Shown piece after piece: positions 25,449-30,328 of a DNA stretch of 64,000 bases; position 1 is the first letter of the stretch; each line of letters begins with the position of its first letter. The notes under the pieces were generated by a model. That model saw nothing but the letters and a program-made list of their open reading frames with translations, was not told where the DNA came from and ran no database searches. This stretch comes from Candidatus Poribacteria bacterium (lineage in GTDB: Bacteria; Poribacteria; WGA-4E; WGA-3G), in the NCBI GenBank assembly GCA_965197475.1, contig CBDANF010000003.1, positions 2,560,001-2,624,000 of the forward strand, written 5' to 3'. The position numbers were made by a program, and so were the translations under genes.

Positions 25449-25617
25449 TACAGCGTATCTCATAAATACGATATCGTTAAGTTCAGTTTGATTTATCCAA
25501 TGTTTGTCTGTTAGTCCATAGTATTGTAGGGCGGGTCCCTATGCCTTCTATTTTTCCTTGCTAAGAAACGACGAGGCACAGGGACCTCGCCCTACAAGTG
25601 ATTTATGAAATAGATTA
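25449..25617. mobile_element. MITE with REP hairpin pair (family shared with 31106-31260)
   Basis: Ends tacagcgtatctcataaat / atttatgaaatagatta enclosing gtagggcgggtccctatgcc...ggcacagggacctcgccctac. Confidence 0.65.
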
Positions 25618-25659
25618 AAATGAGGCACTCACAATAGTAGAAGCGAAACAACGACCTAC

Positions 25660-26049
25660 CTAACTCAATTTCACTGCAGTTCCGTACATCTGAAGATAAA
25701 AGTATTGAAAGCTATTTGTATCCAAGTCAATATCTTGCCGCATACTTATAATAGCGTTTGCTTCTAAGAGTGCTGCACGTTTTTTCAGTTCTTCAACTGA
25801 AACGAAAAATGCTTTCTCAAAATCACTCTGACCCACACTCCACTCACCGTACAAAAATCCCCAATCGGCCCGATCCTTTCCCATTTGACCGCTTCTTTTC
25901 ATATCTATGATTTCTGCTTCGTATTGTTTGACGAGTTTAGAAAGGGCATTTGAGAAAATCCCTTTATTTGAGATCTGAAAGTAAACAGGACCAATAATCT
26001 GATAATCCTGTTTAATATCCCCAGTTGTTACAAGAATGTCGCTTCTCAT
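25660..26049 (-). CDS. YbjQ/UPF0145-like (putative heavy-metal-binding) protein
   Basis: VTTGD...Y.I.G.V, EL..RA..L.ANAII, MYGTAVK; GGAGG RBS. Confidence 0.75.
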   Translation of the reverse strand: MRSDILVTTGDIKQDYQIIGPVYFQISNKGIFSNALSKLVKQYEAEIIDMKRSGQMGKDRADWGFLYGEWSVGQSDFEKAFFVSVEELKKRAALLEANAIISMRQDIDLDTNSFQYFYLQMYGTAVKLS

Positions 26050-26222
26050 TTTTACCTCCAAAATTATTACGCAATAAGTAGTTTTGGACTTGCAACAAAC
26101 ATGTAAAAATCGCTACAAACACAGATGTAGACTACATTTCCACTTGTTTTAATTGTGCAACTATGATACAATATAGATAAGAAAGTAGGGGGTTGGTAGC
26201 CCCCTAAATGAACACAAAAAGC

Positions 26223-26289
26223 GAGTTGCTTTTTGACGGTTCTAATCTTATCTGGTATTATATCAGAAATCCGTCAGAAAAAGCAACTC
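26223..26289 (+). promoter_or_regulatory. Transposase promoter enclosed in a long inverted repeat
   Basis: TTGACG-17-TATTAT flanked by gagttgctttttgacgg / ccgtcagaaaaagcaactc. Confidence 0.65.
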
Positions 26290-26308
26290 CTATTTCAAGG
26301 AGTATCTG

Positions 26309-27193
26309 ATGGATTTATTGAAGGTAATGGAGCGTTTTCCTGACCAAGAAGCATGTATTGAGCATTTGGAATATATTCGGTGGCGTGGTGAACCAAGATG
26401 TCCGCATTGTGATAGTCTAAACGTTGCGGAACGGACAGAGACGGAATTGGGACGCATCGGACGCTGGCAATGCCATGATTGCACTGCTACTTTCAAGGTG
26501 ACGTGTGGCACGGTGTTTCACGGGACAAAGATAGCACTTCAGAAGTGGTTTTTGGCGATCTCGTTGATTGTGAATGCGAAGAAGTCGTTATCCAGTTACC
26601 AGTTGAGTCGTGATTTAGACTTGAATCAGAAAACTGCATGGTTTATAATGACTCGTATCCGTGCTGAAATGGCAAAGAAAGGTAGCAACGTGCTATTACA
26701 AGGCATCATAGAGGCTGATGAAACTTACATCGGGGGTAAACCTCGCAAGCCGAACAAGAAAGCAGATGCGGAGCCTGCCAAGCGTGGTCGTGGCACTGAT
26801 AAAGACGCAATCATCGGGGCTGTCCAACGCGGTGGGAAAGTTGTAGCACAACTTGCAAGGGATTTGACAGGACGGACTATTTTAGACTTTATCCGAAGAG
26901 CCGTGAAAGTTCAGGATTCGGAGTTGATGACCGATGAATATAATGCTTATCTCGCACTCGGTAGAGATATGAAGCATCATATCATCAATCATCAAGAGCA
27001 ATTTGTTGACGGTGATGTCCACACAAACACGATTGAGGGGTTTTGGTCGCTTCTCAAACGCGCTTGGTATGGTTCACATCACCACTATTGGACTGAATAT
27101 ACGCCCCTGTATGTCGCAGAGGCGTGCTACAAGTATAACTATAGGAGCATTGACAGCATCTTTGATAAGTTTGTTAATGAGAGTATGAGATGA
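26309..27193 (+). CDS. IS1595-family transposase
   Basis: Zn ribbon CPHC..CHDC, SSYQLSRDL..QKTAW HTH, EADETYIGG, TDEY..Y, NH, HTNTIEGFWSLLKR. Confidence 0.96.
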   Translation: MDLLKVMERFPDQEACIEHLEYIRWRGEPRCPHCDSLNVAERTETELGRIGRWQCHDCTATFKVTCGTVFHGTKIALQKWFLAISLIVNAKKSLSSYQLSRDLDLNQKTAWFIMTRIRAEMAKKGSNVLLQGIIEADETYIGGKPRKPNKKADAEPAKRGRGTDKDAIIGAVQRGGKVVAQLARDLTGRTILDFIRRAVKVQDSELMTDEYNAYLALGRDMKHHIINHQEQFVDGDVHTNTIEGFWSLLKRAWYGSHHHYWTEYTPLYVAEACYKYNYRSIDSIFDKFVNESMR

Positions 27194-27199
27194 GTGAAA

Positions 27200-27535
27200 C
27201 TAAAGGTACCCAGGGCGTTTCTTTGCATGATCCGCGGGTTCAGGCGGTGCTTGCAGCACAGATGGCGGAAGCTCGAATGTCTTTTGATCCGAATTCAAAG
27301 CTTCGAGAATATTTTGGAACAATGTATAGCAATCTGACTCGGATTGGAAGATGCCCAAATTGTAGAGAAAAGTTGATTGGTTCGATCCATGAGCGTCTAC
27401 ATGTTTCAACAGAGTCAGATTGAACAAGTTTGATTCGTTGTTCTTGATGATCACAATTTCATCATAAATATTAAGATTTACGGCTAATGGACAAAATCCA
27501 GTGATTTGTTCAGGTTTTGGAAATATGATTAACAT
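27200..27535 (-). CDS. Conserved IS passenger protein of unknown function (111 aa)
   Basis: AAAGGA RBS and ATG 27535 (MLIIFPKPEQITGF..); paralogous N-terminus at 28087. Confidence 0.6.
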   Translation of the reverse strand: MLIIFPKPEQITGFCPLAVNLNIYDEIVIIKNNESNLFNLTLLKHVDAHGSNQSTFLYNLGIFQSESDCYTLFQNILEALNSDQKTFELPPSVLQAPPEPADHAKKRPGYL

Positions 27536-27583
27536 GATAGTTCCTTTGTGAGTTAGAGGGGACAGGGGCACCTCGTTGTTGGG

Positions 27584-27820
27584 TTAGTCTGTTTTCTTTC
27601 GGTTTACATACCGTTTGATACACCAAGCGGTGAATCTTGCCGACAGAAAAATAATAGGTATGCCGACAATTTGGGCTACCAATGCTACTAATGCGTATTC
27701 TCGAGCACCGAGAACAGTGACTATAGATCCAATGATAGCGAAAAACAAAAGCCAGTTTTTCAACGTGTATTTTTGCTTATAGTAAGCAAATACAAGAAGT
27801 GGCCACACTAAAAGTACCAT
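27584..27820 (-). CDS. Small membrane passenger protein
   Basis: 78 aa, three hydrophobic segments, AAGGGGA RBS. Confidence 0.6.
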   Translation of the reverse strand: MVLLVWPLLVFAYYKQKYTLKNWLLFFAIIGSIVTVLGAREYALVALVAQIVGIPIIFLSARFTAWCIKRYVNRKKTD

Positions 27821-27880
27821 GATATTCCCTTATGGTAAGGGTTGTACGTGTTTTGTTTATAGGATCACGTTGTTTAACCT

Positions 27881-27959
27881 TAACGTTGTTCCCGATCTCA
27901 TTCGGTTTGGTAGGGACTGCCTCAAGCGAGACAGATGAGATTCCCTACCAACAACGTTA
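27881..27959 (-). ncRNA. Putative pseudoknotted leader RNA, copy A
   Basis: P0 27950-59/27881-90 (10 bp), P1 27942-49/27909-16 (8 bp), pseudoknot P2 27935-41/27895-901 (7 bp), hairpin P3 27917-34; begins just after the -10 box. Confidence 0.7.
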
Positions 27960-27963
27960 GGAT

Positions 27964-27993
27964 AGTATAACATGTGGGAGAAAAGAGAGTCAA
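27964..27993 (-). promoter_or_regulatory. Inward-facing sigma70 promoter at IS right end A
   Basis: TTGACT-18 bp (ending TGn)-TATACT; conserved at 28925-28954. Confidence 0.75.
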
Positions 27994-28039
27994 GTGAAAA
28001 ATTCAATGGCTTGTTGCAAGTCCAAAACTACTTATTGCG

Positions 28040-28087
28040 AAGTGAAAAATCAACAGGATCGGAAGGCGGCTTGAATATTACCCACAT
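28040..28087 (-). pseudogene. Truncated paralog of the 27200-27535 passenger gene
   Basis: MWVIFKPPSDPVDFSL vs MLIIFPKPEQITGFCPL, behind the same upstream spacer and RBS; cut at the IR. Confidence 0.6.
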
Positions 28088-28143
28088 GGGTTTAGTCTCC
28101 TTTGGGGTTAGAGGGGACAGAGTCCCCTCGTTGGTTGGAATTG

Positions 28144-28533
28144 CTAATACCCGTATGGAGAATCAGCAGCTGAAATTAAAATTATCCAAAGTCCCACCAT
28201 AGTGCCAGTTCCAATAACACATCCTATTGTAGCATGTGTTATTTGGTCGTTTTTCACAAGTTTTTGATAAATGCTTGTGTAATAAGCAACATATTCTGGT
28301 GATTTTCCAAGCAATTTTTCTGGTAGTACCGTTGGTGTGACAACATACGCAATTAACATACCGGTAACACCAAGTAGACAACCAACAGTTCCCCATATTT
28401 GAGTGTTTGCAAGTGTTGCATCACGTCGTGCATCAAATATTGCTTGCGCAGCATCACTTGTTTGTTGTGCAAGTGTGAGATATGGCGTAGTGAATAACAT
28501 CACAACCATTATAAACGACAAAGTTTTCATCAA
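28144..28533 (-). CDS. Secreted/membrane passenger protein
   Basis: Signal peptide plus two hydrophobic helices, GKSPEY..YY..Y motif, AAAGGA RBS. Confidence 0.7.
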   Translation of the reverse strand: MMKTLSFIMVVMLFTTPYLTLAQQTSDAAQAIFDARRDATLANTQIWGTVGCLLGVTGMLIAYVVTPTVLPEKLLGKSPEYVAYYTSIYQKLVKNDQITHATIGCVIGTGTMVGLWIILISAADSPYGY

Positions 28534-28600
28534 TGTTCCTTTTGTGAGGTAAAATGTGTATGTAGGGGATCAAAAGACCCCCTACATGTTTGCAAGCGGA

Positions 28601-28732
28601 TTATTTACACCGCTTGTGAGGTTTGACAGTTTCTTTCACCGTTGTGGCGGGACGGCGTTTGTCCGTGCCTTTGGGAAGGAACCGTCCGTCTTTGGCATCG
28701 CGTACACGCGTGCCAGTGGCTTTTTTAGCCAT
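28601..28732 (-). CDS. Small basic passenger protein (43 aa)
   Basis: GAGGT RBS, MAKKATGTRVRDAKDGRFL..RRPATTVKE; resembles the small 'RDA..G.F...P.TT..E' proteins of mobile elements. Confidence 0.6.
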   Translation of the reverse strand: MAKKATGTRVRDAKDGRFLPKGTDKRRPATTVKETVKPHKRCK

Positions 28733-28839
28733 AGTATACCTCACTTTGCTTGAGATAAATTGGTGCATAGCGTATTTCCAGTGCGTTATGCACTGTTCAA
28801 GCATATAAAATTGATACGTTAAACGGGTATCGTTCGTAG

Positions 28840-28916
28840 GTTCGTTTACACCTTTCTATGGGTGAGGGCAGGACACAACACAAGGAGTGTTGCGATAGAA
28901 ATCCTGCCCAACGAAC
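28840..28916 (-). ncRNA. Putative pseudoknotted leader RNA, copy B
   Basis: P0 28910-16/28840-46, P1 28902-09/28866-73 (8 bp), pseudoknot P2 28895-901/28853-59 (7 bp), hairpin P3 28874-94. Confidence 0.7.
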
Positions 28917-28924
28917 TTGAGAAT

Positions 28925-28954
28925 AGTATAACATGGAAAGAATTTGAGTGTCAA
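28925..28954 (-). promoter_or_regulatory. Inward-facing sigma70 promoter at IS right end B
   Basis: TTGACA-18 bp (ending TGn)-TATACT. Confidence 0.75.
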
Positions 28955-29037
28955 GTGAAAAATTTGAGAAAAAATTTCAAGTCCAAAACTACTCATTGCG
29001 TTATCTTTTATCATTATCCAAAAATAAAGGTATACTT

Positions 29038-30045
29038 ATGCAAAAAAGACCGTATCATTTTTTATATACAGTGGGTTGTATTGTTCTCGTTGCGCTAATA
29101 ATTTTCACAGGCTGTGGTGATAAACAGAACAAGAAATGGCTTTCAATTTATGGGGGTGTGATAGGAGGAAGTTTCTCGCAATTTGCTGGAGGCATAAACC
29201 AGATTGTTAAACATCAGGAATTGGATCTAAAAATATCTGTTGTTGCTTCCGCTGGCTCAATTGAAAATACGCGACGTATCAACAAGGATAAGAACGCCCT
29301 CGGTGTCGTTTTTGCATCAGAGAGTTCTCTCGGTTACCACGGACAAGAGATTTTCGCAGAGGAGGGACCAAAAACGAATATACGGATGGTGACGCTACTT
29401 TATTTTGCCTACGGTCAATTTTCTACTCTCGAAAATAGTAATTTACGCCAGTTTGAAGACATTGTAGGAAATAAAATTGCTTGTGGTGCCCCTGGATCGG
29501 GCACAGCGCAGACATTAGAACGTCTTGCAAAGTCGGCAGGCATCTGGGGCAAATTTACGCCAATTTATAGAGGCGGCACAGCTGGTGCCCAAGCTCTTCA
29601 AGATGGACAGGTAGGGGGATTCTTATGGCTGGTCAGTGTGCCGAATAGTGCAATTATTGAGTTAACAGCGGTAAAATCCATCCGAATGATCGATCTTGAC
29701 ACACCTGCTAAAGAGTCCGATTTCTATGAAAAATACCCTTTCTATTTTCCAGGAAGCATGCCAGAGGGTGCTTATGAAGGGAAAGTTGAATCGGTAAAAA
29801 CGATTTTAATGCCCACCGTCCTGATTGCCAACAAAGCAGTACTTGAGGAAACTGTTTATACCATTCTAAAGCATGTTTATTCTGCCGAGGGACATCAAAC
29901 GATGCTGCAAACAAATCAAGCAGCAGCAGATATGACAATAGAGAATGCCCCGAAGGCATTTGTAATTCCGCTGCACAGCGGTGCCTACAAGTTTTGGAGT
30001 GAACAAGGTGTGGAAATCCCAGATCAAGCAATGCCAGTGGATTAA
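29038..30045 (+). CDS. TAXI-family TRAP transporter solute-binding lipoprotein
   Basis: Lipobox FTGC, SAGSIEN, GAPGSGT, IPLHSGA.KFW.E.G. Confidence 0.9.
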   Translation: MQKRPYHFLYTVGCIVLVALIIFTGCGDKQNKKWLSIYGGVIGGSFSQFAGGINQIVKHQELDLKISVVASAGSIENTRRINKDKNALGVVFASESSLGYHGQEIFAEEGPKTNIRMVTLLYFAYGQFSTLENSNLRQFEDIVGNKIACGAPGSGTAQTLERLAKSAGIWGKFTPIYRGGTAGAQALQDGQVGGFLWLVSVPNSAIIELTAVKSIRMIDLDTPAKESDFYEKYPFYFPGSMPEGAYEGKVESVKTILMPTVLIANKAVLEETVYTILKHVYSAEGHQTMLQTNQAAADMTIENAPKAFVIPLHSGAYKFWSEQGVEIPDQAMPVD

Positions 30046-30112
30046 CAGAAATTTATTTCACTTTTAAAACTTGCATTAAATGTCAGAACGTGATATAATA
30101 CAATTGAAATAA

Positions 30113-30195
30113 CATTATGGGGTGCTCTTACCAGATTAAGAGCTGAGAAAACACCCTTTGAACCTGATCTGGGTCATGCCAGCGTAGGGAAATAC
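30113..30195 (+). promoter_or_regulatory. TPP riboswitch
   Basis: GGGGTGC..GCTGAGA..ACCCTTTGAACCTGATCTGGGTCATGCCAGCGTAGGGAA upstream of thi genes; promoter TTGCAT-17-TATAAT at 30071-30099. Confidence 0.95.
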
Positions 30196-30328
30196 AAAAA
30201 CGAAATTGCGCGCCTCCTATCATGAGGCACTCAGCCGCTTCTTTTTTGGTGCTGCCAAGGCATGGATAAACCATTGGCATGTTCCCTATACCAAAAACGG
30301 AAGACGGCTTTTGCTGTTAAGAGAACAG

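Follow-up and report, generated by a model that had tools for sequence, protein, structure and literature searches.

This report concerns a structured RNA that is encoded twice in a 64,000-nucleotide (nt) stretch of DNA from a Candidatus Poribacteria bacterium (the window, by which this whole stretch is meant) and that belongs to a large, previously undescribed family of ~80-nt pseudoknotted leaders of unrelated mobile genes in sponge-symbiont bacteria. Both copies are read from the minus strand, inward from the right inverted repeat (IR) of an insertion sequence (IS) of the IS1595 family: copy A lies in a complete element (26070-28039), and copy B in the truncated right part of a B-type element (28040-29000) which adjoins it. 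A first-pass annotation, made from the sequence alone, had described two pseudoknotted RNAs behind a conserved TTGACw-18-TATACT promoter inside the right IR; the sequences of both copies proved exact as first written, and the promoter is present before each of them. The features of the two RNAs are as follows.

27993-27964, minus strand: promoter of copy A, sigma-70-type, TTGACT-18-TATACT (10/12 matches) with TG extension; 4 nt separate its -10 box from the RNA
27959-27881, minus strand: leader RNA copy A, 79 nt; matched by the covariance models at 93.4-107 bits, every helix covarying
27959-27950 with 27890-27881, minus strand: closing helix P0 of copy A
27949-27942 with 27916-27909, minus strand: helix P1 of copy A
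27941-27935, minus strand: 7-nt bulge of copy A, which is the 5' strand of pseudoknot P2
27934-27917, minus strand: hairpin P3 of copy A
27905-27902 with 27895-27892, minus strand: helix P4 of copy A, its loop (27901-27895) being the 3' strand of P2
27874-27867, minus strand: P0b' of copy A, a repeat of the P0 3' strand (AACAACGU) 6 nt past the RNA, able to pair with the P0 5' strand
28954-28925, minus strand: promoter of copy B, sigma-70-type, TTGACA-18-TATACT (11/12 matches) with TG extension
28916-28840, minus strand: leader RNA copy B, 77 nt, with the architecture of copy A, a P3 of 8 base pairs (bp) and a loop of 5 nt; 65 bits with covariance model R2
28837-28832, minus strand: P0b' of copy B, ACGAAC, 2 nt past P0 and of the same sequence as in L013

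The -10 box of copy B ends 8 nt before the start of P0 as first drawn, and 5 nt before the start given by the covariance model. In the complete element, the order on the minus strand inward from the right IR is promoter, RNA copy A and passenger open reading frames (ORFs) of 78 and 111 amino acids (aa). There is no terminator-like site in 27100-29100, so the RNA should continue into the messenger RNA (mRNA).

A conserved pseudoknotted fold

The helices first drawn, including the pseudoknot P2 between the bulge and a downstream segment, recur with covariation in 53 distinct homologues. The picture was refined in one respect, in that the P2 3' strand forms the loop of a small further hairpin, P4 (3-4 bp), which itself covaries (variants CCGA/UCGG, CCAA/UUGG, CAG/CUG and CACC/GGUG). 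As predicted from the aligned sequences, P0, P1-P3 and P4 meet in a three-way junction, which is shut by the P4 loop kissing the 7-nt bulge between P1 and P3.

Because MAFFT placed two structural subgroups out of register, a first covariance model (R1) was restricted to copies A and G. All eight known variants were recovered with it, and it served to align the remaining ones before being rebuilt as model R2. The covariation set comprised 63 aligned matches, 53 of them distinct, with P2 entered as a second bracket type. Across the distinct sequences, 94.8% of 1826 cells are paired, as compared to 35.9-43.6% when the partners are slid by 1-3 columns. Two-sided changes occur in 35/35 pairs (P0 10/10, P1 8/8, P2 6/6, P3 7/7, P4 4/4), and 0/500 shuffles match any of the observed measures. 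The alignment was fitted to the nested helices of the model, which biases these figures in favour of those helices; P2 stands outside the model, and its pairing of 88.7% is therefore independent of it. Covariation in P2 had been named beforehand as the point on which the proposed structure depended, and all six of its pairs show changes on both sides.

Both RNAs have low predicted folding energies (copy A, -39.0 kcal/mol, z -5.46 versus shuffles; copy B, -35.6 kcal/mol, z -5.59). The opposite strands fold comparably (z -6.09 and -5.46, respectively), so that energy by itself cannot assign the strand. Within the 35 pairs, 66 cells are G-U and 27 are A-C when read on the promoter-sense strand, and this excess favours the promoter-sense strand, which had been proposed as the RNA strand, to a moderate degree. 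The structure is thus confirmed as genuine, conserved and pseudoknotted, on the promoter-sense strand.

Sequence conservation is unevenly distributed over the fold. Mean pairwise identity is 0.79-0.81 in P1, the least variable helix, 0.61-0.63 in P4, 0.56 in P3, 0.48-0.49 in P2 and 0.44-0.48 in P0, the latter two being the most variable. None of the unpaired columns is conserved at >=90%, the best (A21, A62, A65 and A66) reaching 64-81%; the gap between P3 and the P1 3' strand is 0 nt in 52/53 sequences, and the junction strands vary in both length and sequence. The drift of P0 and P2, together with the absence of a conserved unpaired column, fits a role in shape and stability rather than a ligand pocket or an active site.

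These observations bear directly on the possibility of a self-cleaving ribozyme or nuclease-processing signal, possibly a rearranged relative of a small pseudoknotted ribozyme, which would trim the 5' end of the transcript or detach the leader. Small ribozymes are often linked to mobile genes, and by analogy the leader would come closest in topology to the pistol ribozyme, in permuted order: both pair a hairpin loop with the 5' side of an internal loop in a second stem, both lie in the range of ~50-80 nt, and both are linked to mobile or phage-like genes. Pistol ribozymes are cleaved at an unpaired dinucleotide that separates P3 from the 3' strand of the enclosing stem, and they have ~10 near-invariant core nucleotides. 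In the leader, the corresponding column is the one that is empty in 52/53 sequences, a conserved core is lacking and an extra closing helix, P0, is present. The strand order P1-P2-P3-P1'-P2' furthermore recalls the hepatitis delta virus (HDV)-like ribozymes, which are characterized by a nested double pseudoknot with P1.1, by a short P3 whose loop L3 is conserved and by a catalytic C located in J4/2. Here, P3 has 7-8 bp and a variable loop of 4-5 nt, P1.1 and a conserved unpaired C are missing, and the P1'-P2' segment makes the short P4 stem around P2'; the lack of P1.1 and of the L3 consensus had been noted in the first-pass annotation, and the copies are probably not HDV-like ribozymes. Four metatranscriptome runs of one study contain the stretch, as contigs only, and contigs from two of these RNA libraries end at the borders of copy B (28840, 28843, 28916), which may be counted in favour of cleavage. 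Over 27100-29100, however, some contigs cover both RNAs through promoter and IR and others break at the RNA borders, and ends at hypervariable segments are expected from an assembler where repeat subtypes diverge. Since no unpaired position is conserved at >=90%, and with no Rfam ribozyme model matching even at E 1-10, we regard a ribozyme as very improbable.

The first-pass view of the motif as undescribed was corroborated as far as Rfam is concerned. At gathering score, Rfam 15 finds in the window only a thiamine pyrophosphate (TPP) riboswitch and a tRNA, both elsewhere, and none of its models matches at the RNA positions when hits with E up to 10 are admitted over 25500-29500; at 12 further loci with family members, scans at E up to 1 return only tRNA elsewhere. 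The listings and abstracts of the literature searched hold nothing on the motif, and 0 papers in that literature use the term 'Poribacteria-1', presumably the name of an existing Rfam motif; no Rfam model matched here.

Promoter and leader before unrelated mobile genes

The gene context was examined for 90 distinct copies, which are the best-scoring matches, so that the proportions given here are no census. A TnpB gene follows directly in 34/90, with its start ~10 nt past the fold; a convergent IS1595 transposase gene lies downstream, as in the window, in 16/90, a GIY-YIG nuclease gene in 6/90 and, directly downstream, a DNA methylase gene in 1/90. Other or unknown contexts account for 30/90, among them four copies with a same-strand IS1595 transposase gene and four with a methylase-like match further downstream (three of these on the same strand), and in 3/90 the flank is too short for a call. 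Pfam searches on representatives identified OrfB_IS605 and a Cas12f1-like TNB domain in 4/4 TnpB proteins tested, as well as GIY-YIG and N6_N4_Mtase. The description of the RNA as IS1595-borne thus has to be given up: the same fold with its own promoter heads TnpB genes (IS200/IS605), GIY-YIG and DNA methylase genes and other small genes, and the RNA is tied to mobile genes generally, not to IS1595.

The promoter is as constant as the fold is widespread. A sigma-70-like promoter precedes the fold in 85/90 distinct copies; for 66 of these 85, the gap from the end of the -10 box to the model start measures 3-6 nt (mode 5). Given this fixed spacing, the RNA should start at about the first base of P0.

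Model R2 matches 36/40 genomes of a genus sample (27 matches in the genome of the window itself) and 107/151 genomes of an order sample, both at E <= 0.01; matches in the order number about 680. In a phylum sample, 103/151 genomes match at E <= 0.001; by family, these are 86/99 genomes in f1 and 16/26 in f3, with 0/25 genomes matching in the remaining seven families (f2, f4-f9). A metagenome scan with a P1-strand pattern returned at least 116 stretches, of which 80 were retained as loci. R2 matches 8 of them (E <= 0.01), and the best six of these 8 comprise three strong members, one degenerate copy and two false matches in a coding-looking region; the remaining pattern matches were dismissed as chance. 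Close relatives of the window's transposase all come from records titled Candidatus Poribacteria, apart from three short contigs, one in a Gammaproteobacteria-labelled bin and two from an 'uncultured bacterium' assembly.

Among the IS1595 elements of the genome, right-end subtypes carry their own versions of the fold (B, 9 copies; A, 6; C, 4; D, 4; E, 1), and the fold is absent from seven passenger-less copies of 1139-1140 bp. In a distant subtype (IR CGGAATAAGTAGTTTCGGACATT, 6 copies), the corresponding site next to the promoter is occupied by a plain long hairpin. In this subtype, as seen at L010:322-391 (contig C3) and L020:1589-1658, the bulge strand pairs inside P1, and pseudoknot, P4 and P0b' repeat are all lacking.

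This distribution also weighs on the idea of a trans-acting RNA, be it a transposition cofactor bound by the transposase or the passenger protein, or a copy-number sensor operating through intermolecular P2 kisses. Transposon-encoded RNAs with such cofactor or copy-number roles are known, P2 and P0 are hypervariable and lineage-specific, and many identical copies exist per genome. A single protein partner, however, hardly fits an RNA that heads at least four unrelated protein families and in many copies has no transposase nearby, and the association with a transposase that had been proposed earlier is unlikely because the RNA is missing from the passenger-less IS1595 copies and heads unrelated mobile genes. 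Moreover, the lack of a terminator makes the RNA part of an mRNA, it points inward from the IS end without a flank-derived guide, and an intramolecular kiss should outcompete an intermolecular one. The omega RNA of TnpB and the bridge RNA of IS110 resemble the leader as structured transposon-encoded RNAs, often beside tnpB. The leader differs from them in that it lies 5' of tnpB, past an internal promoter and inside the left end, contains no flank-derived part and also occurs without TnpB or a recombinase; this identity was rejected on the grounds of inward transcription, a start ~60 nt inside the IS1595 end, the position 5' of tnpB and the missing guide. On the whole, we judge a trans-acting role improbable.

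A structure formed in single-stranded DNA during transposition or recombination, such as the end hairpins of IS200/IS605 or integron attC sites, would likewise be kept while its sequence varies, and it would agree with the comparable folding of both strands and with the many copies within IS200/IS605-type elements; Y1 transposase genes are present in 5/5 genomes tested. The TnpB elements nevertheless own separate ends. Eight TnpB copies of one genome have canonical IS200/IS605 left-end and right-end hairpins, the left one 45-65 nt upstream of the leader promoter, and in 3/8 this hairpin is parted from the -35 box by other DNA inserted exactly between the two. These true end hairpins show that the fold is not the DNA end structure of the transposon, and they largely refute the idea. 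The fold also occurs in IS1595 elements, which are of the DDE type, and before free-standing genes, its distance to the promoter is fixed, and the sense strand has more G-U than A-C cells. A DNA structure is accordingly extremely improbable. Insertions exactly at the -35 side furthermore define promoter and leader as one module with a sharp left edge. In L156-L163, which derive from one sister-genus genome, the IS200/IS605-type left-end hairpin reads CCCCATGC-TTCA-GCGTGGGG, a matching hairpin marks the right end, which reads ...GAGTATATCAC, and several tnpB copies are frameshifted or split.

A third strand of the closing helix and possible roles of the leader

The P0 3' strand (P0b) is repeated 4-7 nt downstream, as P0b', in 71/88 copies. 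The P0 5' strand (P0a) can form at least 7 contiguous pairs with a site 1-11 nt past the fold in 41/51 copies, as compared to 12% of 2090 mismatched controls; in the larger set, P0a:P0b' reaches at least 6 bp in 80/88 and at least 7 bp in 71/88, with a spacer of mostly 5-7 nt. All three strands, P0a, P0b and P0b', vary jointly across lineages (AACAAUGC, AACAACGU, AGCAAUAC, UUCGUG, AAGUGAUG). A start codon lies inside P0b' in 64 of the 80 sites (55 ATG); an ORF of >=50 aa begins at 36/80, and a frame of at most 30 codons at 26. In TnpB leaders, P0b and P0b' are separated by the Shine-Dalgarno sequence, and the AUG lies within P0b'. In the A-type leader, an apparent relic of the first tnpB codons can be read directly in the sequences.

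Taken together, the sequences suggest a portable 5' leader, coupled to its promoter and acting in cis on its own mRNA, which would lock the 5' end and gate or tune translation, and we put this forward tentatively, as the best available explanation and one that falls somewhat short of an even chance. Judging from the promoter distance, transcription would start at the first one to three bases of P0, such that the 5' end would be base-paired from the outset, and the P2 kiss of 6-7 bp would keep a compact three-way junction shut. The paired end would be hidden from 5'-end-dependent decay, and the fold would insulate the ribosome site from interference by the leader. In addition, P0a, being complementary to both P0b and P0b', could set translation as part of a three-strand device: in TnpB-type copies, P0a:P0b would leave the start free and P0a:P0b' would bury it. 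The whole module, from the -35 box to P0b', would then have been taken up by unrelated selfish genes. Of the four functions first proposed for the RNA, a switch and a nuclease-resistant leader fit best, while a ribozyme is disfavoured and a transposase-associated RNA unlikely.

Precedents for parts of such a leader exist. The ompA-type 5' stem-loops and the leaders of IS10/IS50 and IS200 also place structure at the extreme 5' end or a leader strand complementary to the ribosome site, and the IS leaders are cases in which mobile elements set their own expression. Those leaders are simple hairpins, whereas the present one combines a pseudoknotted three-way junction and a decoy copy of the start region, and its whole module is common to unrelated element types. 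The RNA is a new family within a known kind, the structured 5' leader, its unusual traits being the three-strand closing helix and the modular spread.

Tuning of initiation through P0a:P0b versus P0a:P0b' appears clearest for TnpB. In 7/7 TnpB leaders folded, P0a:P0b is part of the minimum-free-energy structure; once P0b is blocked, P0a:P0b' forms over the AUG in the best remaining fold, at a loss of 2.1-9.9 kcal/mol in stability. Several observations weigh against the cis-acting account or parts of it. In the TnpB leaders the 'on' fold is always favoured. In the six GIY-YIG leaders modelled, the P0 alternatives are near-equal in energy (5/6 within 1.6 kcal/mol), and predicted accessibility from the Shine-Dalgarno sequence to the AUG is the same in both states in 6/6 (0.32-0.55). 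In the window, P0b' lies far from the real gene starts; that of copy A offers only a 3-codon GUG frame, and that of copy B no start codon. Burial of the start can therefore not be the general role of P0b', and a general model of start-site burial is weakened by the GIY-YIG leaders. The RNA-library contigs span promoter and IR as well, and thus demonstrate neither start, strand, processing nor transcription. For end protection, a simple 5' hairpin would suffice, and the related IS1595 subtype with only a long hairpin and no P0b' (6 copies) leaves the elaborate fold unexplained. Finally, the conserved P1 sequence hints at a bound factor which the leader account does not include.

An alternative is a signal-sensing switch, in which a ligand, a host or element protein at the P1/P4/junction core, or temperature would set P0a:P0b versus P0a:P0b', and one signal would govern the expression of many selfish genes. 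In design, the leader would by analogy be closest to the purine-type translational riboswitches, such as the adenine 'add' ON switch: these also are three-way junctions closed by a helix, with two arms joined by a distal Watson-Crick kiss, situated in the 5' untranslated region (UTR), and with a closing-helix strand that competes with pairing of the translation start. Such competition appears in 7/7 modelled TnpB leaders and affects accessibility in 0/6 GIY-YIG leaders. The sequence conservation of P1 (identity 0.80) and P4, while P0 and P2 drift, and the same module before unrelated genes are further points in favour of a switch. Known ligand pockets, however, have conserved nucleotides, and here no pocket nucleotides are found, the unpaired columns peaking at 64-81% and the junction strands being variable. 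The leader also departs from the purine-type riboswitches in that its kiss is bulge-to-loop, of 6-7 bp and hypervariable, competition comes from a direct repeat of the closing strand, no Rfam model of theirs matches, and the downstream genes are mobile rather than metabolic and share no common metabolic theme. A switch of this kind is in our view rather unlikely. Distinctly unlikely, and more far-reaching, is a programmable three-strand RNA switch serving as a plug-in expression module for TnpB elements, IS1595 cargo operons, homing-type nucleases and methylases, in which a shared signal from host or element would be received by the core (P1, P4 and junction) and the hypervariable P2 and P0 would act as lineage address codes, allowing per-lineage switching or dosage sensing by intermolecular kisses without cross-talk.

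Regardless of which role applies, the RNA is a well-supported structured family outside Rfam 15, with hundreds of copies in an uncultivated phylum, and it indicates that one promoter-plus-leader module can serve mobile genes as unrelated as TnpB (an RNA-guided nuclease), homing-type nucleases, methylases and IS cargo operons. It also offers a test case for the evolution of pseudoknotted leaders, in which two helices drift by compensation and one keeps three strands in step. If the three-strand gating by P0 holds true, it would represent a compact natural design that protects an mRNA end and sets TnpB output, which would be of practical interest for expressing TnpB editors.

The IS1595 elements and other features of the window

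The elements that carry the two RNAs are composed as follows.

26070-28039, plus strand: complete IS1595-family element, 1970 bp, with left IR (26070-26092), right IR (28017-28039), transposase, minus-strand passenger ORFs and leader A
26309-27193, plus strand: transposase gene, 294 aa; Pfam DDE_Tnp_IS1595 (PF12762, 1.6e-36) and Zn_ribbon_IS1595 (PF12760, 1.4e-09)
27584-27820, minus strand: first passenger ORF past leader A, 78 aa, hydrophobic, no Pfam match
27200-27535, minus strand: second passenger ORF, 111 aa when read from ATG 27535 (123 aa if from GTG 27571), no Pfam match
28040-29000, minus strand: truncated right part of a B-type IS1595 element, with right IR (28978-29000), promoter, leader B, a second leader motif and ORFs
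28601-28732, minus strand: basic ORF of 43 aa in this fragment
28144-28533, minus strand: ORF of 129 aa in this fragment
Cut at 28040 by the neighbouring element, minus strand: 90-aa ORF of the B-type fragment, first codons only

The complete element is a member of the IS1595 family, with the catalytic domain, the zinc ribbon, inverted repeats and multiple copies all present: six copies of the same length (1970 bp) occur in the genome, and the terminal inverted repeat is perfect over 29 nt. The 23-nt IR has three sites in the window, at 26070-26092 (plus strand), 28017-28039 (minus strand) and 28978-29000 (minus strand), with a chance expectation of 0; genome-wide, there are 91 IR matches and 41 paired elements. 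Copy B was considered as part of a second whole IS, which was rejected in favour of a truncated right-end fragment adjoining the complete element; intact B-type copies of 2296 bp are present elsewhere in the genome. The RNA-library contigs also hold an uninterrupted B-type arrangement, in which 27187 is joined to 28040 with 240 other letters between. An 8-bp target-site duplication is a trait of the IS1595 family. None is present at the complete copy, whose flanks read AATTATTA on the left and AAGTGAAA on the right, and the sites compared (26062-26069, 28040-28047 and 29001-29008) contain no 8-bp match; because the complete copy adjoins a truncated sister element, a rearrangement is likely behind the mismatched flanks.

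A Pfam scan of five passenger proteins, four from the window and one from an intact B-type element, gave zero matches. B-type and E-type elements hold relatives of the 27200-27535 protein with a similar C-terminus. In several IS1595 subtypes, the last passenger gene encodes a related protein of 90-111 aa with a common C-terminal ...FELP/FDLR...YL tail, and such genes always adjoin the transposase stop codon and have no Pfam match; examples are 27200-27535 (minus strand) in the window, L013:1071-1343 (plus strand) and a 107-aa ORF in L009.

Further conserved RNA-like structures accompany these genes. A second conserved leader motif (28733-28810, minus strand in the window) separates the pseudoknotted RNA from small basic ORFs of 43-48 aa; it consists of an outer stem GCUUGA/UCAAGC around a near-invariant GUGCAUA...UAUGCAC stem. 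An RNAalifold prediction on 9 sequences gave 16 pairs, 7 of which have a two-sided change in at least one sequence, and Rfam has no match to the motif. It recurs at L001:1693-1773, L009:424-504 and L040:1624-1704, and in L058, L066, L068, L124, L050 and L079. GC-rich conserved hairpins lie between the passenger ORFs in both element types (27538-27583 and 28093-28138 in the window); they read GAGGGGAC...GUCCCCUC on the transcript strand, have no U tract and may be processing or stabilising sites. At the left end of the complete element (26093-26308, plus strand), a TATAAT promoter-like region is followed by a hairpin-rich, conserved 5' UTR of the transposase, alike in other genome copies, which is closed by GATAAGA...TCTTATC and contains GGGGG-loop-CCCCC and AAAAGC-loop-GCTTTT hairpins.

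Outside the elements, the TPP riboswitch of the window (30108-30207, plus strand; 67.6 bits) precedes a transporter permease gene, and a substrate-binding-protein-like ORF is found on the opposite side.

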